Counted from the first letter of the stretch, positions 9,099 to 37,337 are shown. The stretch is 64,000 nt of DNA from Patescibacteria group bacterium (GCA_018969615.1 JAGWYA010000002.1:3070-67069), one strand, 5' to 3'. Notes: generated from the letters alone by a model not told the origin. Program-made: numbers and translations.

Positions 9099-10955
9099 AT
9101 GCCACAGCGCTCCCATCCTTCACCGCTCAATACAACCCAGGAACAAGCGGTCCGCCATTCCGGAGGACCGCTTTTGATCGCCGCCGGCGCCGGATCGGGA
9201 AAAACGAAAACGCTTACGAGCCGGCTTTTGCATCTTTTGGAGACCGGCGTCGCTCCGCAGGCGATCATTGCGATCACGTTCACCAACAAAGCCGCGAAAG
9301 AAATGAGGTCGAGAATAACGAATAATGAATTAGGAATAACGAACGGGGCGACTGATGAAAAAAAGAGCGGCGTAATTCATAATTCGAAATTCATACTTCC
9401 ATTTATAGGAACGTTCCACGCGCTCGGCGTCCGCATCCTGAAAGAAGAAGCGCACTGGGTGGGACGCACATCACACTTCACGATCTTCGACGACGAGGAT
9501 AGCGCGAGCCTGATCAAATCGATCCTGAAAGAACTGCAGCTCTCCAAGGACCGCTTCAGTCCGTACGCCGTCATCGGCCAGATCTCACGGATCAAGAATG
9601 AATTGATCAATGTCGATGAGTACGCGGACGAAGGCCGCTATGAACACACGATCGCGACCGTCTACCGGAAATATAATGAAACACTCCTGCACAGCAACGC
9701 GTTCGATTTTGACGATCTCATCGAGAAGGTCGTCCGCATCTTCCTTGAGCATCCCGAAGTGCTCGCCAAATACCGCGCCCGCTGGCAGTATGTTCTCGTC
9801 GATGAGTTCCAGGACGTGAACACGAACCAGTACCTGTTCGTAAAACTGCTCGCCCAGGAGCACAAGAACATCTTCGTGATCGGCGACGACGCGCAAAGCA
9901 TCTATGCGTTCCGCGGTTCCGATTTCCGGAACTTCCTCAATTTCGAAAAGGACTGGCCGGATGCGAAGGTGATCCTGCTGACCGAGAACTACCGTTCCAC
10001 GAAAAATATCATCAACGCCGCCTCGGCGCTCATCAAACATAATTCGTTCCAAAAGCCGAAGGATCTCTGGACCAGCAACCCGGAAGGGGAGCTGATCAAC
10101 GTTATGGCGTTCCAGAACGCCGAGGAGGAAGCGGTCTCGGTCGCCCAGCGGGTCCGCGAAGCGCTCGGCGGCGGCGAATCTCCGAAAGAGATCGCGGTCC
10201 TGTACCGTACGAACGCGCAATCCCGCGCGCTCGAGCAATCGCTCATCAGGAACAACATTCCGTACGAGATCTACGGCGGGCTGAAGTTCTATGCCCGCAA
10301 GGAGATCAAGGACATTGTCTCCGCGATCCGGTACGCGTTCAATCCGAAGGACCGCTCCGCGATCGACCGCATCACGAAAACGTTCAATAAAGGCCCGCGC
10401 ATCGCGCTTCTGGAAGCGCTTCCGCGTCTTGCCGAAGAAAGGCTGTCGCTCGTTGAACTGATCCAATATTTCCTTGAAGAGACCCGCTACACCGAATTCC
10501 TCGCCCTTCATTTCAAAAATCCCGATGAACGCCTTGAGAACATCAAAGAACTGATCCAATTTGCCGCGAGCTTCAACGATCCGCATGATTTCATCGAGCA
10601 GGTGACGCTGTTATCCTCGCTCGACGGCCGGCCGAAACTGCAGGAGAACGCGGTGAAACTGATGACGATCCATCTGTCCAAGGGCCTTGAGTTCGACCGC
10701 GTCTTCATCGTCGGCGCGAACGAAGGACTGCTTCCGCATGAACGCTCAATGATAAAGAACGATGACCTCGAAGAAGAGCGGCGCCTGATGTATGTCGCCA
10801 TAACCCGCGCCCGGAAACATCTCACGATCAGCTTTTATGATCTGCCGTCGCGGTTCCTCGGCGAACTGCCGCCGGAACTCATCGCATTCACGAAAGTCAG
10901 CAGTTACGGCGCCGAAACCCGCGACTGGGATGATGAAACGATATACTTAGAATAA
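9099..10955 (+). CDS. uvrD: UvrD/PcrA ATP-dependent DNA helicase
   Basis: AGAGSGKT, TFTNKAA, GTFH, VDEFQD, GDDAQSIY, NYRST, LYRTNAQS, MTIHLSKGLEF, EERRLMYVAITRA; ~29-codon insertion at 9313-9399. Confidence 0.95.
   Translation: MPQRSHPSPLNTTQEQAVRHSGGPLLIAAGAGSGKTKTLTSRLLHLLETGVAPQAIIAITFTNKAAKEMRSRITNNELGITNGATDEKKSGVIHNSKFILPFIGTFHALGVRILKEEAHWVGRTSHFTIFDDEDSASLIKSILKELQLSKDRFSPYAVIGQISRIKNELINVDEYADEGRYEHTIATVYRKYNETLLHSNAFDFDDLIEKVVRIFLEHPEVLAKYRARWQYVLVDEFQDVNTNQYLFVKLLAQEHKNIFVIGDDAQSIYAFRGSDFRNFLNFEKDWPDAKVILLTENYRSTKNIINAASALIKHNSFQKPKDLWTSNPEGELINVMAFQNAEEEAVSVAQRVREALGGGESPKEIAVLYRTNAQSRALEQSLIRNNIPYEIYGGLKFYARKEIKDIVSAIRYAFNPKDRSAIDRITKTFNKGPRIALLEALPRLAEERLSLVELIQYFLEETRYTEFLALHFKNPDERLENIKELIQFAASFNDPHDFIEQVTLLSSLDGRPKLQENAVKLMTIHLSKGLEFDRVFIVGANEGLLPHERSMIKNDDLEEERRLMYVAITRARKHLTISFYDLPSRFLGELPPELIAFTKVSSYGAETRDWDDETIYLE
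9313..9399. repeat. Inverted GAATNNN heptamer arrays inserted in frame in uvrD
   Basis: GAATAAC GAATAAT GAATTAG GAATAAC - 31 nt - GTAATTC ATAATTC GAAATTC ATACTTC; 87 nt total. Confidence 0.85.
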
Positions 10956-10977
10956 GGAAGTATGAATAAGGAATCAG
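10950..10977 (+). repeat. Left heptamer array of the four-helix-bundle cassette
   Basis: GAATAAG GAAGTAT GAATAAG GAATCAG; contains the uvrD stop and the next ATG. Confidence 0.85.
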
Positions 10978-11351
10978 GGAAAATAAGAAACTTTCAGGAC
11001 CTCGATGCATGGAGAGAAGGGCATCTCTTGGTTTTAGAGACCTATAAGGTCACAAAAAAATTCCCCAGGGAAGAAATTTTTGGATTGATAAGTCAGATGC
11101 GGCGGTGCGCGGTATCAATTACTTCTAATATTGCTGAAGGATTCAGTAGGCAGTCCTACAAAGAAAAGTTGCAATTTTATTCAATATCGCAAGGATCGGT
11201 CACTGAACTCCAAAATCAACTGCTTATATCAAAAGATGTGGGCTATATGGACGAAAGTGAATTTCAAAAAATTTCCGAACAGTCGATAAAAGTACATAAG
11301 ATCATAAACGGCCTGATCAGGCATTCTAAGGCCGTAATTCCTAATTCCTAA
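10962..11351 (+). CDS. Four helix bundle protein (TIGR02436 / 23S rRNA IVS-protein / bAvd-like fold)
   Basis: FQDLDAW, FPREEIFGLISQMRRCAVSITSNIAEG, SQGSVTELQNQL signature; lower GC than neighbours. Confidence 0.92.
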   Translation: MNKESGKIRNFQDLDAWREGHLLVLETYKVTKKFPREEIFGLISQMRRCAVSITSNIAEGFSRQSYKEKLQFYSISQGSVTELQNQLLISKDVGYMDESEFQKISEQSIKVHKIINGLIRHSKAVIPNS

Positions 11352-11361
11352 TTCGAAATTC
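11334..11361 (-). repeat. Right (inverted) heptamer array of the four-helix-bundle cassette
   Basis: GTAATTC CTAATTC CTAATTC GAAATTC; contains the gene's stop and abuts the ksgA ATG. Confidence 0.85.
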
Positions 11362-12183
11362 ATGAGCCAATACCTGGGGCAACATTTTCTGAAAAATAAA
11401 ACCGCCGCGCGCAAGATCGTGAACGCGCTTGCCATCAAACCGGGCGATACCGTGATCGAGATCGGCCCGGGCAAAGGAGCGCTGACTGGCGATCTTCATC
11501 GCGCCGTGACGAATGCCAAAGGAAAACTTATCCTTGTCGAGATCGACCGGGATATCGCCGTCACACTTCATGAAAAATATTCATCGGATCCGGTCGTGAA
11601 GATCGTGAACGCCGATGCGCTGACCGCACTGCCTGAGGTCATTGCCGGGCTCGAAGATCGGCCCTACGCCATTATCGGCAATATTCCGTATTACATCACC
11701 GGGAAGCTCCTGCGCACCATCGGCGATCTCCCGCATCTTCCGCAACGCACGGTTCTCATGATCCAAAAAGAAGTTGCGGAACGAGTCTCTGCGCGGCCGC
11801 CTCGCATGAATCTGCTTGCCGCCGCCGTACAGCTGTGGGCTGAACCGAAACTGCTCTTCACGCTCTCTCCGGAGGATTTCGATCCGCCGCCGCAGGTCAA
11901 TTCCGCGGTCATCAGTCTTGGAAACCGCCCGGCGCAAGCCGATGAGCACGATCGTGATGCGTATTACCGCCTGCTCCATATCATCTTCAAGCAGCCGCGG
12001 AAAACCCTTCTCAATAACCTCGCCGAAGGGGCTTCCCAGACAAAATCAGAACTTGAAGAGCTCATCGCACCCCTCGGATACGACCAGAAAACACGCCCCC
12101 AGGAGCTTTCCGTCGACCGGATCAGAACTTTGGCATCACTGTTTAAAGAAAAGGGTATTGAGATCCCCTCTCTCCGTTCATAA
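11362..12183 (+). CDS. rsmA: 16S rRNA (adenine-N6,N6)-dimethyltransferase
   Basis: LGQHFL, IEIGPGKGALT, GNIPYYIT, QKEVAER, FDPPPQVNS, RKTLLNNL. Confidence 0.95.
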   Translation: MSQYLGQHFLKNKTAARKIVNALAIKPGDTVIEIGPGKGALTGDLHRAVTNAKGKLILVEIDRDIAVTLHEKYSSDPVVKIVNADALTALPEVIAGLEDRPYAIIGNIPYYITGKLLRTIGDLPHLPQRTVLMIQKEVAERVSARPPRMNLLAAAVQLWAEPKLLFTLSPEDFDPPPQVNSAVISLGNRPAQADEHDRDAYYRLLHIIFKQPRKTLLNNLAEGASQTKSELEELIAPLGYDQKTRPQELSVDRIRTLASLFKEKGIEIPSLRS

Positions 12184-12304
12184 CCGCTCCCGAACAGCCA
12201 CTTATACACCCTTATTCTATTGTTCTTCACGAAGAAAAGGAGATATAATAGTGACAGATGTCGATCTGTGTCAAATCAGCCTTTTTGAGACGCTGATCAC
12301 GTCA

Positions 12305-13084
12305 ATGACAATGGGGAAGGCACTGCTTGCAACAACTATTGTAGGGATCGCCCTCGTCGGCGCAGTCTTTTTGATACAAAAAAACAACGTCCCTACGCCG
12401 GCATCCGATGCGGCACAAACATCAGGAGCGAATAACATCGCCTCTTCTCAACCGTTCGTCGAAAAAGCACCGATCGACCAGCTTGCGGCGCTCACCCCGG
12501 GCACAAACCTGACCCAAGAATTCGGTGACGTTCTTGCGCAAGAGATCAGCAATGGAAATCCGGGTGGGCCTACAAACCTTAATGGACAAAATTCGATCGG
12601 CGTGCCAAACGCAGATACCTTTGCACAAAACCTTATCAGTCAGGCGGTTACAAAGTTCGATCCCTCAAAACTTTCCCCGGTCGTTAATGATTCCGATCTG
12701 CATATTATCCAAGATAACAGCAAGGCTGCGGTTATGAATTATGTCAGCCAACTTCATGCGATTGTCGTCGATGAAGCGCATGCGATTCCTTCTGGAGTTG
12801 TTTCAGATAATCCGACCATTGATCAGGTCACAACGCTCGTGCCGATCTATAAGGATATGCTCACCAAAGTCTTTGCCCTTTCCGTACCAAGTGTCGCTAT
12901 CGACATCCAAAAAAAAGAATTGGAATTGCTTATGAAAAAGGCGTATATTCTTTCGGCGATCGCAAACTATAAGAACGATCCGGTTACCACTATTCTCGTT
13001 TCCCAAGAGCTGGTCACTGTCGATCAAGAATTCAGCGATCTTTCAAATTCCGTAAAGGCGCTTATTCAAAAATATTCAGCATAA
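12305..13084 (+). CDS. Hypothetical membrane-anchored protein, first gene of T4SS-like cluster
   Basis: N-terminal hydrophobic helix; TATAAT at 12244; the longer ORF call overlaps rsmA and is rejected. Confidence 0.75.
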   Translation: MTMGKALLATTIVGIALVGAVFLIQKNNVPTPASDAAQTSGANNIASSQPFVEKAPIDQLAALTPGTNLTQEFGDVLAQEISNGNPGGPTNLNGQNSIGVPNADTFAQNLISQAVTKFDPSKLSPVVNDSDLHIIQDNSKAAVMNYVSQLHAIVVDEAHAIPSGVVSDNPTIDQVTTLVPIYKDMLTKVFALSVPSVAIDIQKKELELLMKKAYILSAIANYKNDPVTTILVSQELVTVDQEFSDLSNSVKALIQKYSA

Positions 13085-13087
13085 AAC

Positions 13088-14665
13088 ATGCGCTATAAGA
13101 ATATACAAAAGATTATTGCGGGAATCCTTATAGGAACACTATTCTTCCCTCAATTAAGCGCTCTTCAGGCGCCGGCACCAAAAGCTCACGCTGTCTTGGG
13201 CGTAGGCGATATTACATTTACTGATGTGATCATGGACCCGACCACGCTTCTCTATTATTCAGATATGGTGACGGCCACTGATCTCAACTCCAGCGCAAAT
13301 ACAGCTTCATGGGCAACAAAAATATTAGAACTTGCAAAACAGGTCGCCTATGCCGCTTTCAAAGCCGCGATCCTCGATCAACTCGTGCAGGCGCTTATTA
13401 ATTGGATAAACAATGACGGCAAAGGACCGATCATCGCCGATTGGAATCAATTCTTCTATAATGCCGAAAATAACGCTGCGGGCGCGTTCATTGACGGACT
13501 TTCCGGAGGTGTCCTTTGTTCGCCATTCAACCTCCAGGTCCAACTTTCACTTGCGCCGGTACAGAATTTTAGCGATGTCACCTGTACGCTTAATCAAGTG
13601 ATCGGCAATATTGATAGCTTTATAAGCGACTTCCGCAATGGAAGCTGGCTTGCCTATCAGCAGATCTGGGACCCTCAAAATAACTTCTATGGTGCGGCCA
13701 TGATCGCCCAAGATGATCTGTTGAAACAAGAGTATAGCGCCGTCAATACATCACAAACCGAAGGAATAGCCGGACAAGGGTTCCTGTCCTTTACAAAATG
13801 CGATTATACGCCAGATCCTAACGGATCATATGTGCAAGTAGGAGGAAATTACATTCTTGCAAGTACTAATAATGCCAGCTCTCGATATTCAAAATCATGT
13901 CACGTTACCACGCCAGCTCAGGTCGCCGTTGAAGCGACAAAACAAGCACTGGTTGATGTCGGGATCGGGAATATTATAAACTCGCAGGATCTTTCCGCAT
14001 ATCTTACGGCGATCTTCAATGCGGCGATCAATCGATTGAAAGTAGCGGCAGCGAACGGTTTAGTTGGCCTTCTTTCGGACGCAACGCAAGGGGTGCATGT
14101 CAATCCGGTCTTCCCCTGTGCCGGAATTACCGGGCAGGCGTTTACCGCATGCATGCAATCGGTCAACTCTGAAAAGAATCTGGCGACAAGCTATCAGGAT
14201 CAGAGCAACACACTGGTTACCAGCGTGCTTGATGTTCGCCAGCAGATCAATGATACGCTTACCCAGGCGATCGCCCTCGAATCGCCGTATGTCGATGCGC
14301 TTACTCAGCTTTCAGCATGCCAGGCAAGCGCTACCGCAACACTCGCGACCGAACAGGGAATTCTCAATTCGCTCCAAGATTCACTGTCAACAAACCAAAC
14401 TTATCTTGATACCCTCAACGGTCTTTCAACGCCGATCGTCACTGCAACCAGTTCAAGCGTAACCGCGGATGATCTGGCAAAGATAAGCGCCATAGCCTCA
14501 GCTGCGACCGCAGCCGCAAATAATATCGGCGACGCTAACGCCGCTCTTCAAGATGCGAAAAACCAGCTCCAAACGATCCAAGCGAACGTCTCGGCGAATC
14601 TCCCGGGGATCCAAGCCCAGCTTCTCTCCTGCCCGGTCATAAGCGCAACAAGTACAACGCCTTAA
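13088..14665 (+). CDS. Secreted helical protein of T4SS-like cluster
   Basis: Signal peptide ending AHA, paired cysteines, long Ala/Gln/Thr-rich coiled-coil C-terminus. Confidence 0.75.
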   Translation: MRYKNIQKIIAGILIGTLFFPQLSALQAPAPKAHAVLGVGDITFTDVIMDPTTLLYYSDMVTATDLNSSANTASWATKILELAKQVAYAAFKAAILDQLVQALINWINNDGKGPIIADWNQFFYNAENNAAGAFIDGLSGGVLCSPFNLQVQLSLAPVQNFSDVTCTLNQVIGNIDSFISDFRNGSWLAYQQIWDPQNNFYGAAMIAQDDLLKQEYSAVNTSQTEGIAGQGFLSFTKCDYTPDPNGSYVQVGGNYILASTNNASSRYSKSCHVTTPAQVAVEATKQALVDVGIGNIINSQDLSAYLTAIFNAAINRLKVAAANGLVGLLSDATQGVHVNPVFPCAGITGQAFTACMQSVNSEKNLATSYQDQSNTLVTSVLDVRQQINDTLTQAIALESPYVDALTQLSACQASATATLATEQGILNSLQDSLSTNQTYLDTLNGLSTPIVTATSSSVTADDLAKISAIASAATAAANNIGDANAALQDAKNQLQTIQANVSANLPGIQAQLLSCPVISATSTTP

Positions 14666-14682
14666 AAGACTAACTTCAACCC

Positions 14683-16707
14683 ATGAATCGCGATCGATCC
14701 TCAAAATATCTTCTTCTCCTTACCGGCGCGCTATTCGTTGGATTAACGCCGTATGCACATGCTGCGAGCGTGGCAACGGCCGTTGGAACCCTGATCGGTG
14801 GAGTTACGTTGGGCGCTGTCCTGCTTCCGATGTCTCTTACGGCGTATCTTTTCGGATACATCGCAAGCTGGTTCGTTACGATCGGCGGCACGCTGACCAA
14901 TTGGTCGCTTGATCTTAACAGCCAGTTATTAAATAGTCCGATCGTTCAAACTGGATGGGTCGCATCCCGCGATCTTGCCAACCTTGGTTTTGTCCTTGCG
15001 ATCATTCTAATTGCTTTCGTTACGATCGTGCGCTATGAATCCTATGATTCAAAGAAAATGCTGGTCCGCCTTATCAGCGCAGCTCTTCTCGTTAATTTCA
15101 GCCTCGTCATTGCTGGCGTCTTCATTGATTTCACCGGTATTACCACAAATTTCTTCCTCAGTAATGCAACAAGTGGAGACCTCACGTCCGTGGGACAAGA
15201 ACTTACCAGCGCCTTTAGAGCACAAACGCTTTTTCAGCAAAACAACAGTGAATCGACGATCCAAAACTATGTGCAGGGCTTGTCGAACGATGTAAATAAA
15301 AAGATTGTCTTCCTTGCAACGGAAACATTCGTCGGCGTCTTTACCAGCCTGACCGCGATCTCTCTTCTTACGATAGCGGCAATGCTTTATATTCGCTATA
15401 TTGCGCTTACGATCCTGCTGATCCTTGCACCGCTTGCGTGGCTGATGTGGATCTGGCCTGATCTTGAGCGGTATTGGCATGAATGGTGGAGCTCATTCAT
15501 GAAATGGGCGTTCTTCGCTCCGGCGGTTTCATTCTTTATCTATCTTGCGATCAAGATAGCAACTGATTATGCCTCTAAAACTCCAAGCGCTATTGCAATT
15601 CCGGTCACAGGAACTGACTCGCTTGTTAACCTTGTTCAAAACTTCGGTTCGATCTTTGGACAAATGCTTGCGGTTCTCGGGATCCTCTATGGCGGACTTT
15701 ATGCCGCGAACCGGATGGGTATCGCCGGAGCCGGATTCGGTATCGCTATGGCAGGGAAAGTAAAGGGATATGTGACCGGAGCGCCTGCAGTTGCCGGGGG
15801 ATATGTCATGGGTGGTCATGGAGTCGGCGGATTAATGAATCGCGCAAGCACCGCAGTGACCGGAAAAACAGTCACTGAAAATCTGAGAGGGGTCACTGGA
15901 AATAGGCTCTTGCAAAGCATCCCGGTCGTTCGAACTGCGATGCAAGAAGCGAACAAGAACCTTGGCGCATTCGATGAGAAACGCATTGATGATCTTATGA
16001 AGCATTACAATTCCCTTGATCGAGAGACTCGGGCAAATTCCGGCGTAGGTGGTTTTGCCGATCCGGTTGAGCGCGCTGCATGGATGGCATCGATGGCGAA
16101 GAATAATCAGTTAAAAGATGCTAAGACGAAACTTGGTGAATCTCGTTATGACAGCATTGCGCAAGAGACTCTAAAAGTGGGCGGGCGGACTATTTCAAAA
16201 GAACTCCTTTCGCGCGATCCAGAACTTGCGCGCTTCAAGGTTGATCCTGGAGCGAGCGAGTGGAAAGGAAAGAGTTCTTCAGAAATTCGCGCTGCTCAAA
16301 AGCTTGAAGTGGCAAAGGCCTATAAAGATATTGCACAGGAAGCGGTTGAAAATATTTCTGCAGCTCAATTCGTAGAAAATCCGGAAAACCTTGCCCAGAT
16401 CCGCACTTCTTTCCTCGTTGCGTTCGGCGAGAAGCGAAGTCATGAAGATAAGGAGCTTATGATGTCCAAGTTAGGCGATCAGATCAAAAACCTTCAATCG
16501 AATGTTACAACTTTGTCGAGCGAACAGCGCGGTCTCTTAAACAATCTTTCGGCAAAATTAAACTTTATGGCAAAGAGCCCCTCATGGACTCCGTATGTAA
16601 CCCAGGATCTTTTACCGTTCCTTAAAAAAGGAGTTCGCAGAACGCTCGAGGGGATCGTAGAAGAGGAGGAAGAGACAAAAAATACTAAAGAAAATACTGA
16701 GAAATAG
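14683..16707 (+). CDS. VirB6/TrbL-like polytopic membrane protein
   Basis: Many TM helices, GW..RDLAN, LLVNFS, RYIALTILLILAPLAW, Gly-rich linker, charged cytoplasmic tail; upstream of PrgI and VirB4. Confidence 0.75.
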   Translation: MNRDRSSKYLLLLTGALFVGLTPYAHAASVATAVGTLIGGVTLGAVLLPMSLTAYLFGYIASWFVTIGGTLTNWSLDLNSQLLNSPIVQTGWVASRDLANLGFVLAIILIAFVTIVRYESYDSKKMLVRLISAALLVNFSLVIAGVFIDFTGITTNFFLSNATSGDLTSVGQELTSAFRAQTLFQQNNSESTIQNYVQGLSNDVNKKIVFLATETFVGVFTSLTAISLLTIAAMLYIRYIALTILLILAPLAWLMWIWPDLERYWHEWWSSFMKWAFFAPAVSFFIYLAIKIATDYASKTPSAIAIPVTGTDSLVNLVQNFGSIFGQMLAVLGILYGGLYAANRMGIAGAGFGIAMAGKVKGYVTGAPAVAGGYVMGGHGVGGLMNRASTAVTGKTVTENLRGVTGNRLLQSIPVVRTAMQEANKNLGAFDEKRIDDLMKHYNSLDRETRANSGVGGFADPVERAAWMASMAKNNQLKDAKTKLGESRYDSIAQETLKVGGRTISKELLSRDPELARFKVDPGASEWKGKSSSEIRAAQKLEVAKAYKDIAQEAVENISAAQFVENPENLAQIRTSFLVAFGEKRSHEDKELMMSKLGDQIKNLQSNVTTLSSEQRGLLNNLSAKLNFMAKSPSWTPYVTQDLLPFLKKGVRRTLEGIVEEEEETKNTKENTEK

Positions 16708-16710
16708 CAT

Positions 16711-17808: not shown

Positions 17809-17817
17809 GCGTTTGCC

Positions 17818-18327
17818 ATGCAATTCCAGGTCCCTCAATTCATTGAAACAGAAGATAAGATCGTCGGACCGCTGACCCTGACCCAATTCCTGTATGTTGC
17901 GGCGGGCGGCGGGGTCTGCTTTATTCTCTTCTTCTTCCTTCAGACCCCGCTCTGGATCTTTTTTGTGCTTCTGATCATGCCGGCATCCGTTTCGCTTGCT
18001 TTCGTGAAGATCAACGGGCGCTCGCTTCCGGTCGTACTCCTTGCGGCGCTCGGCTACTACTGGAAACCGCGGTTTTATATTTGGCAGCGCGAAGAAGAAG
18101 CGGTTCCGACCATGCAGCTTCCTAAAATAGGCACGGGGGGTAGCACGCGTTCATTGCTTGATTCTCTGGTCGATCAGTTAAAAACAAGCAAGAACCCGAT
18201 CCCGAAACGCGAAAAAGCGATCGCACCGGCCATCACCGACCGCGTCAAAAGCAGCAAAGAACGATTTGAAACGCTCCGGAAGATCACAGGGGAGGCTGAA
18301 ACAGCCCGCCGCGTTGATTACCGATAG
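17818..18327 (+). CDS. PrgI family protein (VirB3-like)
   Basis: MQFQVPQFIETEDKIVGPLTLTQF start, two TM helices, KINGR. Confidence 0.85.
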   Translation: MQFQVPQFIETEDKIVGPLTLTQFLYVAAGGGVCFILFFFLQTPLWIFFVLLIMPASVSLAFVKINGRSLPVVLLAALGYYWKPRFYIWQREEEAVPTMQLPKIGTGGSTRSLLDSLVDQLKTSKNPIPKREKAIAPAITDRVKSSKERFETLRKITGEAETARRVDYR

Positions 18328-18375
18328 GAATATTTCGTTTCATACTTTTCGCGTTTCCCTTTATACTAATAACGT

Positions 18376-20759: not shown

Positions 20760-21128
20760 ATGAATAAAAATGCAAAGATAGGCATTATTGATGCGATCAT
20801 TATGACACTGCTTTGCATCAGTGCAGATGCCGCCCAGATCATTGCTGATCTCAGTATCGCTATTCCAGTTGTCGGTGAGGTACTGCCATTAGCTGCATGG
20901 GCGTATGGGCTTGCCATTTCCGGTATTGTACTTTTTTGGCTTATAATGAAAGGAGTGAGCACGAAGTGGTTCCTTGGGGGAGCGGGTATCGATCTTATAC
21001 CTTTTGTAAATATCTTACCGGGAACTACCGCAGCGATCATTGCAACGATCATCGAGGATAATCTTCCTGAGAAGACAAAAGCAGTGACATCCCTTGTATC
21101 AAAAGCGGTCAATCCATTGGAAAAATAA
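20760..21128 (+). CDS. Small multi-pass membrane protein
   Basis: Hydrophobic ORF with IPVVG and LIPFVNILP motifs; stop overlaps next ATG. Confidence 0.75.
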   Translation: MNKNAKIGIIDAIIMTLLCISADAAQIIADLSIAIPVVGEVLPLAAWAYGLAISGIVLFWLIMKGVSTKWFLGGAGIDLIPFVNILPGTTAAIIATIIEDNLPEKTKAVTSLVSKAVNPLEK

Positions 21129-21877
21129 TGACGATCATGAGAACTCATACTAAAACCGGATCATTCGCCGCCCATCATCGACTGGCATGGTTTTCGGCTA
21201 TTTTACTGCCTACTGCCTACTGCCTCCTTGCTCTGACAGCAAACGCACAAACCGCTCCCGAGTTCATGGTTAGTTGGAAGGCCCTCGACTATGTTCCTGC
21301 GGACTATATCGGAAAAACATTGCCGACTCAAACGACGCAAGTCGAAGCGGCATTTGATGTGATCGATCAAGGAAAGATCGTCGATGTTTCAAAGAATATG
21401 ATAAATTGGTATGACAACAATGCCCTTATCGCCGCAGGGATAGGATTAAAGACGTTCAAGTTAACCCCCAGCAGCACGCAAAGCGACACCATCCGGATTG
21501 CGGTCTCGAATTATAATGCCAATGGGGATATCTCCACCTCATTTTTGGTCCCGATCGTGAAGCCTGAAGTGGCTGTCAGCGTACCGACACCGACCGCAAA
21601 TCTTTATCGGAACCGCACCGCTCTTGCACCTCAGCCCTATCTCCTTGAAGCCCGGCCTTTCTTTTTCAATGCGACCTCACTCTCCGGACTTACATTCTCT
21701 TGGCAGGTAAACAATACATCACCAACAGGGAATCCGGGAAATCCCAATTTTCTAACGCTTGATCTCTCTTCTCAAGGAACCCCTCAAGAAACCGATATTA
21801 CGCTTTCAGCCGGAGTGACTAATACCGGTAACCAACTCGAACTTGGCAGTCGCATGCTTAATCTTATCGTACAATAA
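21128..21877 (+). CDS. Secreted beta-rich (Ig-like) protein
   Basis: Signal peptide ending ANA, SWKA..YVP..Y.GK.LP, PFFF, FSWQVN. Confidence 0.75.
   Translation: MTIMRTHTKTGSFAAHHRLAWFSAILLPTAYCLLALTANAQTAPEFMVSWKALDYVPADYIGKTLPTQTTQVEAAFDVIDQGKIVDVSKNMINWYDNNALIAAGIGLKTFKLTPSSTQSDTIRIAVSNYNANGDISTSFLVPIVKPEVAVSVPTPTANLYRNRTALAPQPYLLEARPFFFNATSLSGLTFSWQVNNTSPTGNPGNPNFLTLDLSSQGTPQETDITLSAGVTNTGNQLELGSRMLNLIVQ
21203..21230 (+). repeat. CTACTGC heptamer array inside a signal peptide
   Basis: TTACTGC CTACTGC CTACTGC CTCCTTG encoding LLPTAYCLL. Confidence 0.75.
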
Positions 21878-27760: not shown

Positions 27761-27959
27761 GGTGGGGATAAGGGATAGGATAGTCTCTGTATAAATATGA
27801 ACGTTCACACTGCATATAAAAATTATCCGAAGATCTTCAGAGGGTTATCCACAAGAAATCAGCGGAAAGAAAAACTCTTTTTTCGTTATTCCGTCTGGCT
27901 TCTCCGGTTTTCTCCCCTGTATTAACATCCCCTATTACCTCTTCTAATTCTTTATCTAT
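27761..27959. other. Probable oriC (dnaA-dnaN intergenic part)
   Basis: TTATCCACA 27845-27853, near-box TGGGGATAA 27763-27771, AT-rich segments, trio-like tract before dnaN. Confidence 0.75.
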
Positions 27960-29069: not shown

Positions 29070-29077
29070 AGATATCT

Positions 29078-29117
29078 GCCAATAAAAAACCTCCCGGCCG
29101 GGAGGTTTTTTATTGGC
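29078..29117. terminator. 40-bp perfect palindrome, bidirectional terminator
   Basis: gccaataaaaaacctcccgg|ccgggaggttttttattggc between convergent dnaN and pbp. Confidence 0.8.
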
Positions 29118-31597: not shown

Positions 31598-31694
31598 ATA
31601 TCGAGTGATACTATACTATAACTCTTCATCCTTATAAAACAATAACAGCCGGTACCGGCTGTTATGGTCAGATCTGCACGAATCCTAAGACTTT

Positions 31695-31865
31695 TTAGTA
31701 TTCATCGGACGGCGCATCCTTATCGGACCCGTCCGAGTCATCATCGTCGTCTTCATCATCGAACTCGAACAGTTCATCATCATCTCCGTCGTCGAGCCGT
31801 TCTTCTTCCTCAAGCTCTTCGTCGAGGACGTCGTCGTTCGTAGTTTTCTTTTTTTGCTTCGGCAT
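31695..31865 (-). CDS. Small Lys-tipped, highly acidic protein (56 aa)
   Basis: MPKQKKKTTNDDVLDEELEEEERLDDGDDDELFEFDDEDDDDDSDGSDKDAPSDEY; TTGACA-like -35 upstream on minus strand at 31979-31984. Confidence 0.6.
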   Translation of the reverse strand: MPKQKKKTTNDDVLDEELEEEERLDDGDDDELFEFDDEDDDDDSDGSDKDAPSDEY

Positions 31866-31993
31866 TGTTCTTGGTGCGGCGCATCCGCGCCGGTATTTAC
31901 GCCAATACGACCTTTGAAATGATAGTGACCAAAAGAGGTAATGTAACTTACAGGAAAGTATAGCGGAGCCGTGAAGAGTGTCAAGGGGCTGTT

Positions 31994-32500
31994 TTAGGCG
32001 CCCCACTCCCGTTTTTGGGATGCGGCGATCGCGATCGCCAGCGCATCGCTGGCGTCGTCATAGCCTTTGATCGAGGGGAGTCCCAGCAGTTTTGCGGTCA
32101 TGGAAGCAACGCCTTTTTTATCGGCGTTGCCGTATCCGGTCACGGCGCGTTTAACCTCGGAAGGCGTGAACTCTTCGATCGGAATACCGAAGTGTGCAAC
32201 TTCATTAATGAGCGCGCCGCGGGCTTGGGCGACCTCGATACCCGTCTTAACGTTCTTGGTGAAAAAAAGCTTCTCTATCCCGATCTTCTCGGGATGGTGG
32301 GTCGTTATAATGGTTCGAAGTTCTTCCGATGCTTTTTCAAGCAGCGCGGCAAGGATGTTTCCCGAGCCGTGCGCCTGCTCGGCCACTTTTTTGCGGTCGA
32401 TCTCGATCACGCCGTAGGCGATCATTGATAACGTTCGGTCAGTGCGGATCACTCCGTAGCCGATACGGGTGCTGCCTGGGTCGATGCCGAGGATGATCAT
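31994..32500 (-). CDS. ruvC: Holliday junction resolvase RuvC
   Basis: ILGIDPG, IEKLFF.KN, QARG, TPSEVKRAVTGYGNADK, DDASDALAIA. Confidence 0.96.
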   Translation of the reverse strand: MIILGIDPGSTRIGYGVIRTDRTLSMIAYGVIEIDRKKVAEQAHGSGNILAALLEKASEELRTIITTHHPEKIGIEKLFFTKNVKTGIEVAQARGALINEVAHFGIPIEEFTPSEVKRAVTGYGNADKKGVASMTAKLLGLPSIKGYDDASDALAIAIAASQKREWGA

Positions 32501-32506
32501 ACTGAG

Positions 32507-33034
32507 CTATGCGGCTGCGTTGGTCGTGACGAGTTGGACGTCGTCATGGTCATTCAGAGCTTCTACGAGCTCGGCGATCTGCGCTTTCGCGGTATCGCTG
32601 ATCGCCTGAGGGAATTTTGCCTGCCACACCCCGTCCTTTTTTTCGAATGACCAGAGCACGCTTCCCGGAGTTGCGATCTTGGCGTTATGTTCCGAGAGAA
32701 GATGCTTCACTTCGGCGATCGTCCGATTCGTGTTGTCGGTGATGCCTTCGATGATGAGCGCGACGCCCTCCGGGCCGTAGGCTTCGACGACGACATCCTC
32801 AAGCGGTTTTTCTTCGGATGCTTTCGAGACAGCGCGGTCGATATTATCCTGGGGTACGTTCGCTTTCTTCGCCTGGTCGATCGCGGAGCGGAGGCGGGGA
32901 TTGAACTGCGGATTCGGGTCGGCCTTCGCCGCGATGGCGATCGCCTTGAGGAGTTTGGAGAAAAGAAGTCCGCGTTTCTTATCCGCCGCACCTTTCTGAT
33001 TTTTGATCTGTGACCATTTATTGTGTCCTGACAT
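32507..33034 (-). CDS. yebC: YebC/PmpR family protein (short form)
   Basis: MSGHNKWSQIK, NPRLR, EAYGPEG, TDNTNRT, DHDDVQ; adjacent to ruvC. Confidence 0.92.
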   Translation of the reverse strand: MSGHNKWSQIKNQKGAADKKRGLLFSKLLKAIAIAAKADPNPQFNPRLRSAIDQAKKANVPQDNIDRAVSKASEEKPLEDVVVEAYGPEGVALIIEGITDNTNRTIAEVKHLLSEHNAKIATPGSVLWSFEKKDGVWQAKFPQAISDTAKAQIAELVEALNDHDDVQLVTTNAAA

Positions 33035-33137
33035 ATATAGTCAGTATATAAAAAAATAGATTTCACGCCAGGGCAGCCGCATATGCTATCCACAAGATTC
33101 CTTGTGTAATGGCCCATGCGGGAGTATTTTTAAGGTA

Positions 33138-34820
33138 ATGGCTCAGGACCAGGGAGATGCGGGACAATTGAAAAGTATCCTTGCAAAAGCCCGTCATGAA
33201 GCGGAAGAACGGGACGCGCAACGCCGCGCCGGAGCGGCGGGGGCTCTTTATATCGACCTGGCGACCCAGCCGGTGGAAACTGACGCCCTGAACCTTCTGT
33301 CCGAGGAGGAAGCCCGTGCGGCAGGGATCGCCGTGATCGAAAAAAAGGGGGATAAGATCGTAGTGGCCGCGTATGACCCCGGATCACCGAAGACGAAGGA
33401 GTGCATTGCCGATCTTGAGAAAAAAGGACTGAAAACCCGCGTTTTCGGTGCGTCGCAAACAAGCATGGAGCGCGCCTGGGAATTCTATAAATATGTAACG
33501 AAAAAAACCGGGCCGATCACCGGGCGCATTGATGTGGATAAGGAGCGCGTTGAGGGATTGATCAAAAAGCTTTCCACGCTGGACCTGGTCCGCGATGAGA
33601 TCGAACACTTCGATTTCAAGAAATTTTCGACCGCGCAGATCCTCGAGATCGTCTTGGCGGGCGCGCTCAGGAACCGCGCATCCGATATCCATTTTGAGGC
33701 CGGACGGCTGGCGGTCAAATTGCGGTACCGCATTGACGGCGACCTTCATGAAGTGTTGAACGATCTGAAACCGGTGCTGTATTCGCACATCGTCTCACGG
33801 ATCAAGCTGCTTTCGAACTTGAAACTGAACGTCCGCGATGAAGCGCAGGACGGCCGATTCACGATCGGCATCGGGGCAAAGGAGATCGAGATCCGCGTGG
33901 CCGTCGCCCCCTCCGAGTTCGGCGAAGTGATCGTGATGCGCGTGCTCGATCCGGATGCGATCAATCTGAGCCTGCAAGACCTGGGCTTGCGGAGCGACGA
34001 TCTCGTGATCGTCGAAAAGGAACTGAACCGTCCGAACGGCATGATCCTCAATACCGGTCCGACCGGGTCCGGTAAGACGACGACGCTGTACGCGTTCCTG
34101 CGGCATAAGAATTCGGAGGACATTAAGATCATTACCGTTGAAGACCCGATCGAATATCACGTTGAGGGGATCGAGCAGACGCAAGTCGATGTTGAGGCTG
34201 ACTACACGTTCGCGAACGGCTTGAAGTCATTGATGCGCCAGGACCCGGACGTCATCCTGATCGGTGAGATCCGCGACAAGGAAACCGCCGAGATCGCGAT
34301 CCAGGCGGCGCTGACCGGCCATTTGGTTTTCTCGACCGTGCATGCAAATGAAGCGTCGGGTGCGATCCCGCGTTTATTAGACCTCGGCGTGAAAGCGAAC
34401 AGCATCGGTCCGGCGTTGAACCTGATCATTGCGCAGCGTTTGGTGAAGCGGCTGTGCGAACCGTGCAAGGTTGCAGCGGCGCCGTCGAAGGAACTGACCG
34501 CACAGATCGCTGCGCTTGCGAAGGCATTGCCTGAGCGTGTGGACCGTGCTCTTTTGAAAGACGTGAAGATCTTCGCGCCGAAAGGATGCGATGCCTGCGG
34601 CGGAACCGGGTTCCGCGGGCGTATCGGAATCTACGAACTTCTCAGAGTAACAAAAGAGCTTGAAGAGCTCATGGCGAAGGGCGCGGGAGAGATCGCGATC
34701 CAGGAATATGCCGTGAAACAAGGAATGGTGACGATGCAGCAGGACGGGTTGTTGAAGGTCCTTGCGGGCGTCACTACGGTCGATGAAGTGGAAAAAGTAA
34801 CAGGCCCGATCGGAGAATAG
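33138..34820 (+). CDS. GspE/PilB type IV pilus assembly ATPase
   Basis: ASDIHFE, RIDG, QDGRF, GPTGSGKTTTLY, EDPIEY, RQDPDVILIGEIRD, TGHLVFSTVH, two CxxC. Confidence 0.93.
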   Translation: MAQDQGDAGQLKSILAKARHEAEERDAQRRAGAAGALYIDLATQPVETDALNLLSEEEARAAGIAVIEKKGDKIVVAAYDPGSPKTKECIADLEKKGLKTRVFGASQTSMERAWEFYKYVTKKTGPITGRIDVDKERVEGLIKKLSTLDLVRDEIEHFDFKKFSTAQILEIVLAGALRNRASDIHFEAGRLAVKLRYRIDGDLHEVLNDLKPVLYSHIVSRIKLLSNLKLNVRDEAQDGRFTIGIGAKEIEIRVAVAPSEFGEVIVMRVLDPDAINLSLQDLGLRSDDLVIVEKELNRPNGMILNTGPTGSGKTTTLYAFLRHKNSEDIKIITVEDPIEYHVEGIEQTQVDVEADYTFANGLKSLMRQDPDVILIGEIRDKETAEIAIQAALTGHLVFSTVHANEASGAIPRLLDLGVKANSIGPALNLIIAQRLVKRLCEPCKVAAAPSKELTAQIAALAKALPERVDRALLKDVKIFAPKGCDACGGTGFRGRIGIYELLRVTKELEELMAKGAGEIAIQEYAVKQGMVTMQQDGLLKVLAGVTTVDEVEKVTGPIGE

Positions 34821-34831
34821 CTTTAAAATAA

Positions 34832-34996
34832 AAATAGAAGGCTTTGTTCTGTGGGCAAATATCCCGTCAGGGAAAAAGTGGAACTTTCCTAAAATAAATT
34901 TTAGAAAAGGTTAGAATTATTCTGAGGAGTGGCCTCGCCTGAGCCAAGCCATCCGTCTAGAAGTAATTCCCGCCCACAGAACAAAACCTTCTATTT
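34832..34996. other. 165-bp structured intergenic element (ncRNA or MITE-like)
   Basis: 25-bp IR with one mismatch, aaatagaaggctttgttctgtgggc / gcccacagaacaaaaccttctattt, enclosing internal stems. Confidence 0.6.
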
Positions 34997-35062
34997 ATCG
35001 GAGAACACCTGCATTGGATTGATAATAATATAGCATAAATAAATACTATTGTCAATACCCTT

Positions 35063-36091
35063 ATGGAATCACAAAACACAAAAAAAAGTATACCAAAAAA
35101 GGACCCGAAAAGGGAAGAGGACGCGCACATTGATCTCGCGCTCCGTCCTTCGAATTGGGAAGACTATATCGGACAGGAAAAGATCAAGAAAAACCTCCGG
35201 GTGATCCTGGACGCGGCGTTGAAGCGCGCGGAATCATCCGATCACCTGCTGTTCTACGGCCAGGCGGGCCTCGGCAAGACGACGCTCGCGCATTTGGTCG
35301 CCAAAGAGATGGGCGCGAACCTGAAAGTGACCTCCGGACCGACGTTGGAAAAGATGGGGGACCTTGCGGCGATCCTTAGTAACCTCGAAAGCGGCGACGT
35401 ACTGTTCATTGATGAGGCGCACCGGTTGAACCATCAGATCGAAGAAGTGCTCTATCCGGCGCTTGAGAGCCGGAAGCTCCACTTGGTGATCGGCAAAGGA
35501 CCGGGCGCACGAACCTTCTCGCTTGATCTTCCGCCGTTCACACTGATCGCGGCGACCACGCGCGCGAACTTGCTGTCCGGCCCGCTTCGTTCCCGATTCG
35601 GTGCATCGTTCAAATTGGATTACTACACCGTTGCCGACATTGAGGCGATCCTGGAGCGTTCGGCGAAGCTTCTCGGCGTGGCCGCGGAACCGGCGGCGCT
35701 GAATGCGATCGCAAAAGCGTCCCGGTTCACGCCGCGCATTGCGAACCGGCTTTTGAAGCGCGCCCGCGATTATGCGGAGGTGAACGATATGCCGACGATC
35801 ACGGAAGAAGCGGCGCGCAACGCGCTTGAAATGCTGGAGATCGACGAGCTCGGCCTTGAGCCGACCGACCGGCAGCTCCTTTCGATCATTATCGAGAAGT
35901 TCAACGGCGGTCCGGTCGGGATCCAGACCCTCGCCGCGGCGTTGAACGATGACCGCGGGATCATTGAGGACGTGTATGAGCCGTATCTGATGAGCATCGG
36001 ACTATTGAACCGTACGCCGGCAGGTCGCCGCGTGACCGCGGAGGGGTACAAGCACCTCGGATACAAGATCTCTAAGGACGGACTGCTTTAA
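35063..36091 (+). CDS. ruvB: Holliday junction branch migration helicase RuvB
   Basis: LRP...YIGQ, GLGKTTLA, LFIDEAHRL, EEVLYPA, FTLIAATTR, TPRIANRLL, YEPYL, RTPAGR. Confidence 0.97.
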   Translation: MESQNTKKSIPKKDPKREEDAHIDLALRPSNWEDYIGQEKIKKNLRVILDAALKRAESSDHLLFYGQAGLGKTTLAHLVAKEMGANLKVTSGPTLEKMGDLAAILSNLESGDVLFIDEAHRLNHQIEEVLYPALESRKLHLVIGKGPGARTFSLDLPPFTLIAATTRANLLSGPLRSRFGASFKLDYYTVADIEAILERSAKLLGVAAEPAALNAIAKASRFTPRIANRLLKRARDYAEVNDMPTITEEAARNALEMLEIDELGLEPTDRQLLSIIIEKFNGGPVGIQTLAAALNDDRGIIEDVYEPYLMSIGLLNRTPAGRRVTAEGYKHLGYKISKDGLL

Positions 36092-36100
36092 AGATCGATT

Positions 36101-36685
36101 ATGGATAATCCATTGGAAAAAATGATGCGGCAGGGGAACAGAGAAAAAATTGAGGAACCCTCAGAGCTTCATGAAGAAGAGCAAAAATCGATCACGACCG
36201 GCAGGCTTGAAGAATTAGCCGCAGATATTAAAAAGATGTCGGTGATCCCTCCGATCAGCGATGAATATTTTTTAAACAAAGAAGCGGTAGAACTTGATGC
36301 GGAATTAAGTGAATTTGTTGCAGCAGAAAACCGACTCGATTCTAATTCGAAGAAAAAATTATATCGGCGGCTCAAACAGGAAGTTCTTGATGAAAAAATA
36401 AAAGAATTTCAAACCCATGCGCATGGAACAGTGAATGAAATAGCGGAAAAAGTGCGGCTCGCCACGCGCCCCGCCCTTTCTTCAGATGAGGAGATGCAAT
36501 TGGAAATATATCTAGGAAAAGCACCGGCATGGCAGCGTTTAAAAGCGGTGGAATCTTTGGAAGAAGTTTTTAAGAAGGTCGGTTTTGTCGACCCTCAACT
36601 GCAAGAGAAGATTAAGGAAATAGAGAAAATGATCGGTAAAGATGACTATAGGACACAGGAAGCAAAATTAGGCGGATATGATTAA
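36101..36685 (+). CDS. Hypothetical charged helical protein
   Basis: 194-aa AT-richer ORF right after ruvB, followed by terminator 36706-36728. Confidence 0.7.
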   Translation: MDNPLEKMMRQGNREKIEEPSELHEEEQKSITTGRLEELAADIKKMSVIPPISDEYFLNKEAVELDAELSEFVAAENRLDSNSKKKLYRRLKQEVLDEKIKEFQTHAHGTVNEIAEKVRLATRPALSSDEEMQLEIYLGKAPAWQRLKAVESLEEVFKKVGFVDPQLQEKIKEIEKMIGKDDYRTQEAKLGGYD

Positions 36686-36760
36686 GGTAATACCCTAAGA
36701 AGCGCAAGAGCCCGTATGGGCTCTTTTTATTGGCGGCGAGTGAGCGTAAACTAAGAGCAT

Positions 36761-37276
36761 ATGCGCAGTTCATCGATCCATATGACCCGGCGCTTCGCGG
36801 CCCGGCTGGCAAGGCGGATCCTGAAAAAGGGACCGTTGCGTTCCGGTGCGACGATCGTCGCGCTCCGGGGAGATCTTGGCGCGGGAAAGACGACGTTCAC
36901 TCAGGGGTTCGTGAAAGCGCTCGGCGTGAAGGGGCGGGTGACGAGTCCGACCTTTTTGCTGATGCGGCGGTATGCGCTAAAGAGTCGAAAGTCCCGCCAA
37001 AGGCGAGGCTCCCGCTTCGCAGCGAGGCGAGCGCCAAAGGCGGCAAAGGTCAAAGGTCACATGTTTAAAAATGTCTACCATTTCGACCTCTATCGCATCC
37101 AGCGGGCAAGCGATCTGCAGGCGCTTGAGTTCAATAAGATCATTGCGGAACCGGCGAATATCGTGCTGATCGAATGGCCGGAGCGACTGGGAAAAAAGAA
37201 GCATGCGCATACGGTTCATTTCAAGCACGGAAAAAATGAAAAAGAGCGTGAGATTAGAATTAAGAATACTGAATAG
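36761..37276 (+). CDS. tsaE: tRNA threonylcarbamoyladenosine biosynthesis ATPase TsaE, with insertion
   Basis: LRGDLGAGKTTF, VTSPTF, YHFDLYR, IEWPE; ~25-aa basic insertion between SPTF and HFDLYR. Confidence 0.93.
   Translation: MRSSSIHMTRRFAARLARRILKKGPLRSGATIVALRGDLGAGKTTFTQGFVKALGVKGRVTSPTFLLMRRYALKSRKSRQRRGSRFAARRAPKAAKVKGHMFKNVYHFDLYRIQRASDLQALEFNKIIAEPANIVLIEWPERLGKKKHAHTVHFKHGKNEKEREIRIKNTE
36980..37058. repeat. In-frame composite repeat insertion in tsaE
   Basis: AAGAGTC GAAAGTC [ccgccaaaggcg...cgcttcgc-a-gcgaggcg...cgccaaaggcgg] AAAGGTC AAAGGTC. Confidence 0.7.
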
Positions 37277-37337
37277 TGAATCAGGAACAGGTCCGGTAAT
37301 GCCAGCTTCCTTATTCGCAATTCATGCTTCATAATTC
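37257..37337. repeat. Inverted GAATNNN heptamer arrays at tsaE / exonuclease junction
   Basis: GAATTAA GAATACT GAATAGT GAATCAG - 25 nt - CTTATTC GCAATTC ATGCTTC ATAATTC; contains tsaE stop. Confidence 0.82.

Follow-up and report, generated by a model that had tools for sequence, protein, structure and literature searches.

A four-helix-bundle gene framed by inverted heptamer arrays between uvrD and rsmA

In the 64,000-nucleotide stretch of Patescibacteria DNA analysed here (the window; G000:C2:3070-67069, with coordinates counted from its start), a gene for a small four-helix-bundle protein lies between uvrD and rsmA and is framed by two arrays of heptamers, GAANNNN units on the left and inverted units on the right. 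The element is best explained as a cassette of the type known from intervening sequences (IVS) of 23S rRNA, placed in an operon and accompanied by gene-less derivatives that are tolerated in protein loops; we assign this reading a probability of roughly 0.5. The cassette, i.e. the two inverted arms with the gene between them, is likely a selfish element that propagates as one unit and leaves in-frame gene-less pairs. The source genome, G000, has a size of 807 kb (14 contigs, ~53.5% G+C, 96.6% complete); other G numbers denote relatives. The cassette and its neighbours are arranged as follows.

9072..10955, + strand: uvrD (superfamily 1 helicase), open reading frame (ORF) with putative start; PF00580 E 7.9e-84, PF13361 E 6.9e-67
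10950..10977, + strand: left arm of the cassette, four GAANNNN units (GAATAAG, GAAGTAT, GAATAAG, GAATCAG)
10962..11351, + strand: four-helix-bundle gene, 129 aa, PF05635 / TIGR02436, motif RRCAVSITSNIAEG
11334..11361, no strand assigned: right arm of the cassette, four units ending in TTC
11362..12183, + strand: rsmA/ksgA (16S rRNA dimethyltransferase), PF00398 E 1.2e-46

Thus, uvrD is the upstream neighbour of the cassette as well as the host gene of the first gene-less pair described below, and rsmA is the downstream neighbour. The arrangement agrees in its coordinates with the first-pass annotation, which had described four plus four inverted heptamers around the gene: the start (ATG, 10962) and stop (TAA, 11349-11351) of the four-helix-bundle gene are both located inside the arrays, and the last TTC of the right arm (11359-11361) directly abuts the rsmA ATG (11362). 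The first heptamer of the left arm overlaps the uvrD stop codon (10953-10955), and the arm contains a run rich in purines in addition to the ATG just mentioned. The additional claim that the arrays supply the uvrD stop was not borne out. Most relatives without the cassette end uvrD with GAATAA (Glu-stop), read as ...IY(I/L)E*, and because of this the stop is, judged by sequence comparison, native and ancestral; the array overlaps it and does not supply it. Comparison of the uvrD-rsmA junctions, a check proposed by the same annotation, revealed that the two genes are directly adjacent in most relatives and that the junction is empty in the congeners G002 and G004.

The encoded protein was assigned to PF05635 with an E value of 1.3e-37 (128.7 bits compared with a cut-off of 33.8; profile positions 1-106 of 106) and to TIGR02436 with a score of 119.3 (cut-off 24), in line with the family call made earlier. 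It carries the conserved RxxxSxxxNxxE (reading RRCAVSITSNIAEG), which is part of the family motif GxxRxxxSxxxNxxE (PMC3936711), and matches PDB entry 2gsc, the Xanthomonas protein XCC0516, at E 8.4e-21. The entry comprises five chains, and XCC0516 is a homopentamer according to Lin et al. 2006, as cited in PMC4990558 and PMC10053308; by homology, the window protein may be pentameric as well. Models of Avd, the homologous protein of diversity-generating retroelements (DGR), remained below their cut-offs (bAvd, 32.1 vs 40; NF033474, 22.3 vs 80), and a reverse transcriptase (PF00078) was not found in the 96.6% complete G000. For these two reasons, identity with DGR Avd was rejected. Pfam detected no domain in the cassette ORF beyond PF05635 and the sub-threshold bAvd, and no Y1 (HUH) transposase domain.

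The two arms pair imperfectly, with 17 of 21 positions matching in the best local alignment. They close the predicted fold of the 441-nt cassette (10935-11375), which has an energy of −105.1 kcal/mol (z −2.5). Scanning positions 10700-11600 yielded no promoter-like site on the plus strand and no terminator-like site at all; a single promoter-like site was found on the minus strand, with 1.3 expected. A search of Rfam at E up to 1 over positions 9000-12000 gave zero matches, and the cassette is located outside any 23S rRNA helix.

Gene-less array pairs in conserved genes

Two array pairs without a gene between them are located elsewhere in the window, one within uvrD and one between tsaE and a gene for a 5′-3′ exonuclease.

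9313..9343, + strand: left array of the gene-less uvrD pair (GAATAAC, GAATAAT, GAATTAG, GAATAAC, GAA)
9376..9399, no strand assigned: right array of the gene-less uvrD pair, units ending in TTC
36761..37276, + strand: tsaE, PF02367 E 1e-30
37257..37287, + strand: left array of the gene-less pair between tsaE and the exonuclease gene
37307..37337, no strand assigned: right array of the gene-less tsaE pair, units ending in TTC
37345..38211, + strand: 5′-3′ exonuclease gene, start (MRKFLLIDAN) predicted from relatives

Both cargo-free pairs, reported before as four-plus-four layouts at 9313-9399 and 37257-37337, were recovered. The uvrD pair is read in frame, the left array as RITNNELGITN and the right one as IHNSKFIL, resulting in the peptide RITNNELGITNG...VIHNSKFILPF. 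Its right array pairs with the left one in the minimum-energy fold (−18.4 kcal/mol, z −1.6). At the second locus, the last eight codons of tsaE (EIRIKNTE) and the stop codon lie in the left array, the TAG (37274-37276) being part of the fourth unit, and the open frame of the exonuclease gene begins at 37324 within the right array; the fold of this pair has an energy of −25.0 kcal/mol (z −3.4). The tsaE genes of relatives end at similar length with ...KERxIxV..., and among 20 orthologous junctions read, the GAAT-type pair was present in G000 and G002 only. The native tsaE tail of relatives resembles heptamer units, e.g. ATTAAAGTAATTAAGAAC in G005. Such unit-like native tails of uvrD and tsaE might mean either that insertion favours unit-like sequence or that arrays grow from such seeds.

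A fourth pair was detected in frame in the cysteine desulfurase gene of G000 (G000:C3:12308-12380), where it encodes the peptide KESRIRNKELGKNPNPIIHNSLFDLP. Palindromic inserts lacking a gene are therefore found in unrelated genes, namely uvrD, cysteine desulfurase and the tail of tsaE, accompanied by one lone arm in a TatD-like gene. At the insert sites of uvrD and cysteine desulfurase, the loop is shorter in many orthologues, and the gene-less pairs represent additional sequence located in variable loops, the proteins being conserved otherwise. The single GAAT arm (G000:C5:30797-30820) lies on the minus strand and is read IIHDSKFTIP; no partner arm was seen, and the contig stops 540 bases beyond. 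To look for traces of the gene in the gene-less copies, we also aligned the halves of the arms at the four GAAT loci. They share an inner unit GAAT[CT]AGG followed by GAA, which was judged insufficient as evidence that the gene-less copies descend by deletion.

The arrays are not due to chance. Searching the window with the pattern GAANNNNGAANNNNGAANNNNGAA gave nine matches to (GAANNNN)x4, compared with a mean of 0.04 and a maximum of two in 100 dinucleotide shuffles. All nine matches fall into the three loci described above, always in the order GAA array followed by TTC array. Throughout G000, arrays of at least four such units are confined to these loci, the cysteine desulfurase pair and the TatD-like arm. 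A unit-blind census, in which a heptamer array was defined as four units with at least 4 of 7 columns invariant, detected 44 arrays in G000 compared with 0-2 in Markov controls, 24 of them in open frames of at least 150 codons. Paired clusters numbered 28 compared with 1-3 in the controls, although those with period 9 may partly reflect codon periodicity.

Several families of arrays can be distinguished in G000: GAAT (five loci), GTAG/CTAC (about 22, mostly intergenic hairpins), TTYGAC (about 11 arrays, most of them direct and within ORFs) and a small number of further families. G000 has three PF05635 genes, each of which lies between inverted arrays of a different unit, namely GAAT, GTAGGCA-like 7-mers and TAGAAC-like 8-9-mers. 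A cassette with TTYGAC arms was not found in the G000 assembly.

Some further arrays of G000 are described for completeness. A one-armed CTAC-type array at window positions 21204-21233 (three TACTGCC units and a degenerate one) is read in frame as LLPTAYCLLAL, the hydrophobic core of an apparent signal peptide in a 249-codon ORF (21128-21877). At G000:C4:217730-218560, GTAG/CTAC arrays flank a peptidyl-tRNA-hydrolase-like gene, and the upstream hairpin encloses ~100 bases of G+C-rich sequence with a small stem of its own. The four-helix-bundle gene at G000:C4:227400-228150 (L001) has no stop codon of its own; its frame continues across the right arm (SFPPLPTAHGLR) and into the gene that follows, whose product has a hydrophobic N-terminal segment, giving an open frame of 428-430 codons. 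PF05635 matches within long frames were also seen in relatives (L010, 269 codons; L017, 1148 codons; G042, 430 and 715 codons).

Most PF05635 genes in relatives have arms, and one pair of copies is alike from arm to arm

PF05635 was present in 27 of 41 relatives. For 32 loci in these genomes, we aligned the 150 nt preceding the PF05635 domain locally with the 170 nt following it and compared the highest complementarity with that of 50 shuffles per locus and of 124 displaced control intervals. Local alignment was chosen because RNA duplex energies of the 150-nt flanks, which gave long duplexes interrupted by loops, were no better than those of displaced controls and had been dropped. Complementary arms scoring above the maximum of the 50 shuffles were found at 28 of the 32 loci; 29 exceeded the 95th percentile of the displaced intervals and 19 exceeded the control maximum. 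The misses in the shuffle comparison were L020-L022, a subgroup with A/T-rich arrays upstream only, and L007. Among 20 further PF05635 loci, 17 scored at least 27, and the remaining three extended over two genes or were truncated by the end of a contig. The neighbours of the PF05635 genes were mostly encoded on the same strand (upstream 29/32, downstream 30/32), with a crude genome baseline of 432 in 685 adjacent frames.

G019 contains two cassettes on one contig, 6 kb apart and with different neighbours, which are 70-100% identical from the left to the right array. Identity reaches 100% over the first 60 and the last 30 bases of the alignment and falls to 23-40% in the flanks, and the number of units differs between the copies. 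Hence, the cassette was duplicated here as a discrete unit ending at the outer edge of the arms. The copy beside the Fpg-like gene recurs, together with its flanks, in G020 and in G008, which belongs to another genus, so that cassettes are both duplicated within genomes and inherited over long times. Units, too, are kept across genera: ACTAGCC at the Fpg-side locus in G008, G019 and G020, and GTTCTAGAT-like units beside a LemA-like gene in G000, G003 and G039.

With respect to arm polarity, the G-rich array was located 5′ of the C-rich one in all paired loci of G000 read, on either strand, and in most high-scoring PF05635 loci of relatives. The reverse order occurred in several loci with more divergent proteins (L023, L026, L029, L108, L110, L111, L116 and L120). 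In the congener G001 (G001:C6:183-2800, L034), uvrD is flanked on both sides by small cassettes, with a divergent PF05635 gene upstream (C6:183-458) and a GxxExxY gene downstream.

Co-occurrence of the gene and the arrays

The first-pass annotation had proposed to examine the co-occurrence of arrays and TIGR02436-type genes. We did so in 151 genomes of the order with a completeness of 90% or more and observed a clear association with exceptions. PF05635 was found in 92 genomes. These contained a median of 12.5 GAA-array matches (mean 18.2), compared with 1 (mean 3.3) in the 59 negative genomes (Mann-Whitney p 1e-10, kinship of genomes being ignored), and at least four matches were present in 66 of the 92 positives and in 12 of the 59 negatives. 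The number of GAA arrays increased with the copy number of PF05635 (Spearman 0.62). Within families holding both kinds of genomes, positives exceeded negatives in 16 of 19 (sign test p 0.004). The control pattern AAGNNNN, which is itself a heptamer array, was also enriched in positives (median 5 vs 1).

Alternative cargo genes

At the uvrD/rsmA junction of G001, G008 and G010, the four-helix-bundle gene is replaced by a GxxExxY gene (TIGR04256 / PF13366 PDDEXK_3), which is framed by inverted arrays of ACGAA type; here, too, the right arm directly adjoins the rsmA ATG. PF13366 was detected in 53 of the 151 genomes; G000 has none. Nine of 12 PF13366 loci read displayed an arm complementarity above that of their own shuffles, and seven of the 12 are located in frame inside host frames of 536-888 codons, including LepA-like proteins and helicases with the motif DEQHRFGV. 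G000 itself contains an HNH gene of 161 codons (G000:C2:75157-75643) located between left-hand GTAG-type and right-hand CTAC-type arrays (75030-75730).

Two observations on these cargo genes may be added. In L099, L101, L102, L103 and L105, whole GxxExxY/PDDEXK_3 cassettes including the arms are in frame in frames of 769-888 codons; they resemble an inserted domain, and none of the intein signatures looked for was found. The HNH cassette, ~8 kb past the end of the window, weakly matches the HNH region of IscB/Cas9 models.

The earlier proposal that the protein and the arrays form one system holds in part. The armed state of 28 of 32 loci, the Spearman coefficient of 0.62 and the arm-to-arm copies of G019 support it; exclusiveness of the pairing does not stand, since GxxExxY/PDDEXK_3 and HNH genes are framed alike, six of the 59 PF05635-negative genomes have at least 10 arrays and the TTYGAC arrays are without a cassette. 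That proposal left two options for the system, a minimal mobile cassette or an oligomer that binds the arrays. According to the latter, the arrays would serve as protein-binding sites: the 7-base units, as DNA, single strands or RNA, would be bound by the four-helix-bundle oligomer, which would regulate the messages on either side or protect them, and arrays in genes would be secondary targets of the protein, not relics of mobility. Conservation of the GAAT core only, with three variable positions that are often unpaired, is what repeated protein sites would show, and the four to five units per arm can be set beside the five chains of 2gsc and the homopentamer of Lin et al. 2006. Array number tracks the PF05635 copy number, the ends of the G019 pair are better conserved than the interior of the ORF, and each of the three PF05635 genes of G000 is framed by a unit type of its own. 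Nevertheless, we consider binding sites an unlikely explanation. Arrays persist where the gene is missing, GxxExxY and HNH genes are framed in the same way without a four-helix-bundle protein in the cassette, the TTYGAC family of G000 has no cognate cassette, and G005 combines many GAAT pairs with the lack of a GAAT-armed gene. A mobile cassette with non-autonomous derivatives fits better than an oligomer binding RNA or single-stranded DNA.

Hot-spot loops carry different units in different species

In UvrD, the insert occupies the loop between the sequences FTNKAA and GTFH, which we take to be helicase motifs Ia and Ib. At least three tandem heptamers were present in this loop in 11 of 28 orthologues, compared with five of 600 control windows from other parts of uvrD. 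GAAT units were found in G000, G001, G005 and G016, units of GCCAT type in G010 and G012, CAATTAC in G011, CTTACAA in G008 and others in G023 and G013. Clear four-plus-four inverted pairs were found in G005 and G010, and only direct arrays in some other orthologues. The hot spot of cysteine desulfurase is the loop before YPLFHTDAVQAFNY, with GAAT units in G000, GTTC.AAAT in the congener G003, GGGTTTA/CCCTAAC in G016, GGGTAAA in G013, CGAAGCA in G005 and a one-armed AATTGGG array in G020; the loop is short in G002, G009, G014, G006 and G012. RsmA behaves as a third hot spot. Regardless of the unit, paired arms are complementary to each other. Two explanations are conceivable for the hot spots: either a few tolerant loops or pre-existing hairpins were targets of repeated insertion, or the inserts are old and their units were replaced by slippage and exchange between the arms.

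Turnover of this kind is central to an alternative in which the arrays are simple-sequence hairpins that generate themselves by slippage and inter-arm exchange, and small selfish genes home in as passengers. The association of genes and arrays would then reflect target preference instead of a shared machine. That the same loops of UvrD, cysteine desulfurase and RsmA carry different units in different relatives speaks for such hairpins, as do the frequent one-armed and direct-only arrays, the unit-like native flanks (GAATAA of uvrD; the tsaE tail ATTAAAGTAATTAAGAAC of G005) and the presence of three unrelated cargo families in one frame, two of them with homing-type nuclease folds. Moreover, heptamers are the commonest long bacterial simple sequence repeats, for which polymerase slippage has been proposed (Mrazek 2007, as reported in PMC4679880). 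This explanation appears doubtful to us all the same. In G019, arms and gene were duplicated together with sharp ends, and orthologous cassettes keep their unit across genera (ACTAGCC; GTTCTAGAT-like). The units within an array are imperfect, so that slippage should be damped, and slippage alone cannot yield two complementary arrays.

Since seven is not a multiple of three, a change by one unit breaks the frame, and switching by heptanucleotides has been described in Haemophilus; the tracts in uvrD and other host genes might accordingly be taken for phase-variation switches (contingency loci). We regard this as extremely improbable. Imperfect units, single-copy housekeeping genes as hosts and frames that stay open through the arrays in every orthologue read speak against it. 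No length variants of the arrays were seen in the contigs of four public runs, a weak argument given that contigs drop rare variants. Eight public runs from three studies hold DNA of the window, all as contigs, and no RNA run was listed. The contigs of four runs end at arrays, e.g. at 9290-9317 and 11350-11411. Apparent joints suggestive of excision were also considered in the runs; their sides comprised 20-30 letters and the pieces were of low likeness, and none was counted as evidence.

Comparison with known systems and a possible mechanism

The closest parallel to the cassette is the helix-45 IVS of Coxiella burnetii, which, as described in PMC4990558, contains an ORF for S23p and has a 28-bp terminal stem that is cut by RNase III. 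Three to four tandem heptamers, varying in number among strains, precede the S23p start, and the IVS is regarded there as a selfish element whose mobility is unknown (PMC4990558). In both that account and the window cassette, a PF05635-family protein is encoded in the loop, complementary termini form a stem that encloses the ORF, the 5′ arm carries tandem heptamers immediately ahead of the start codon, and the ribosome-binding region is part of the stem. Unlike the IVS described, the window cassette is located between protein genes, its arms consist wholly of tandem units, and in-frame gene-less copies and alternative cargo exist; cutting by RNase III would apply here by analogy only.

The gene-less pairs can be compared with Rickettsia palindromic elements (RPE), which are reported to reside in frame in unrelated housekeeping genes, to be translated and to be compatible with function (PMC10969869). 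The pairs are likewise short palindromes translated as an extra peptide in unrelated genes. RPE are described as ~150 bp long with a conserved peptide-coding sequence, whereas the pairs measure 70-90 bp, consist of 7-base units varying between copies and genomes, and have full-length versions carrying a gene.

Heptamer arrays as such are on record elsewhere. Over-representation of heptamers goes back to Mrazek 2007, as cited in PMC4679880 and PMC4692102. According to the latter, GGGAATC arrays are over-represented in Xanthomonas campestris and X. axonopodis and GGGGA(T/C)T arrays in Nostoc; each Xanthomonas genome has 70-75 convergent pairs of GGGAATC arrays on opposite strands, and array length differs between species, with the single or paired type being kept. 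These arrays resemble those of the window in being paired close together, convergent and on opposite strands. PMC4692102 reads the heptamers as intergenic repeats forming G-quadruplexes, and its main text contains neither 'four-helix' nor 'intervening sequence'. The 2gsc homologue XCC0516 is from X. campestris, and a link between it and the GGGAATC repeats is not drawn in that main text. Direct TAACTGA heptamers of marine Beggiatoaceae, cyanobacteria and Bacteroidetes comprise two to six units, are mostly located just upstream of starts and have a patchy distribution across phyla, with one inverted set reported (PMC4679880). They share with the window arrays the dispersed occurrence of short heptamer arrays; unlike these, they are almost all direct, and gene cargo is not part of their description in that source.

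Repetitive extragenic palindromic (REP) elements with their REP-associated tyrosine transposases (RAYT) comprise a small transposase gene flanked by inverted short repeats that are also dispersed without the gene; the repeats are single imperfect palindromes. The likeness to the cassette is one of logic only, as the cassette lacks a Y1-transposase domain and its arms are tandem arrays. Avd of DGRs is a homologous four-helix bundle, and PF05635 is described as the commonest family beside DGR reverse transcriptases (PMC10053308); the window protein differs in that its genome is without a detected reverse transcriptase and the Avd-specific models stay below their cut-offs. PF05635 genes wedged between cas genes have been read as Cas-associated (PMC3936711). 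In the open-access main texts searched, no link of PF05635/TIGR02436 to tandem-repeat arms outside rRNA, to in-frame gene-less copies or to alternative cargo was found.

On the cassette reading, the element would lack a promoter of its own and share a transcript with uvrD and rsmA. Pairing of the arms in this transcript would mask the ribosome-binding site and the start codon of the four-helix-bundle gene. RNase III, the gene of which is present in G000, might cut the arm stem, as in the rRNA elements, and separate the flanking messages. Loss of the loop may give rise to gene-less pairs, which would persist only at sites where the reading frame remains open and a weak, bulged stem does no harm. 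Slippage and exchange between the arms would change the arrays in such a way that the arms stay complementary while the unit drifts.

Observations against a mobile cassette

Several results weigh against the interpretation as a mobile IVS-type cassette. Target-site duplications were seen neither at the ends of the window cassette nor at those of the G019 pair. A transposase or a presence/absence polymorphism was not seen either, public runs being available as contigs only. The GAAT copies of G000 share the core of the unit only, and the order of unit variants differs at every GAAT locus; as the copies are not near-identical, they are unlike young families of miniature inverted-repeat transposable elements. 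The GAAT stems are weak, that of the uvrD pair having a z of −1.6. Furthermore, opposite strands fold as well as sense strands, and the arm mismatches (14 G-U, 29 A-C and 62 transversions, in addition to 667 matches) show no sense-strand excess of G-U; these data do not favour RNA over DNA as the level of pairing.

In RsmA of several relatives, complementary arrays are located in two separate loops and bracket 19-40 genuine RsmA codons, a layout that is not explained by simple insertion of a hairpin. Examples are G008, G010 and G012 (loci L043, L046 and L036 among them), the arrays of G012 being read as ...LELGIRNYG and ...LIHNSSFII. The bracketed segment is the conserved ...GDALK.L, and the units (AAGGTTC, AATTTTC, GAATTAT) differ by genome.

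The co-occurrence data contain exceptions in both directions. Six PF05635-negative genomes (G051, G012, G037, G089, G045 and G088) have 10-53 GAA arrays, with 53 in G051 and 16 in G012, the latter being 99% complete, and 12 PF05635-positive genomes have none. In G005, with 38 GAA matches, neither of the two PF05635 genes has GAAT arms. In addition, the counts cover one unit family, are raw values not adjusted to genome size or A+T content and include the arms of the cassettes themselves, and related genomes are not independent in such a test.

Significance of the cassettes

PF05635/TIGR02436 is a very large family, and the over-representation of heptamers in bacteria has been in print since 2007. 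G000 combines a full cassette, one gene-less form located between genes and others in frame in essential genes, and two further cassettes with other units. Its three proteins and three arm types constitute a natural three-by-three matrix for the recognition of own arms. Concrete comparative results are the co-occurrence in 151 genomes, the sharp duplication from arm to arm and the hot-spot loops with units differing between species. The cassettes also matter for genome annotation: they interrupt operons and lengthen conserved proteins by additional peptide, and short-read assemblies break at the arrays.

Taking the observations together, one might imagine tandem-repeat-armed cassettes as a widespread class of mobile elements that manages without a transposase and has rewritable ends, with the pentamer recognising and spreading the arrays and GxxExxY or HNH proteins acting as alternative drivers. 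In this full form the idea is speculative, and we think it quite unlikely. If it were true, gene-less pairs seeded in surface loops of essential proteins, e.g. UvrD, RsmA and cysteine desulfurase, would provide steady loop variation in the tiny genomes of Patescibacteria, and the heptamer repeats of Xanthomonas and cyanobacteria would gain their protein partner.

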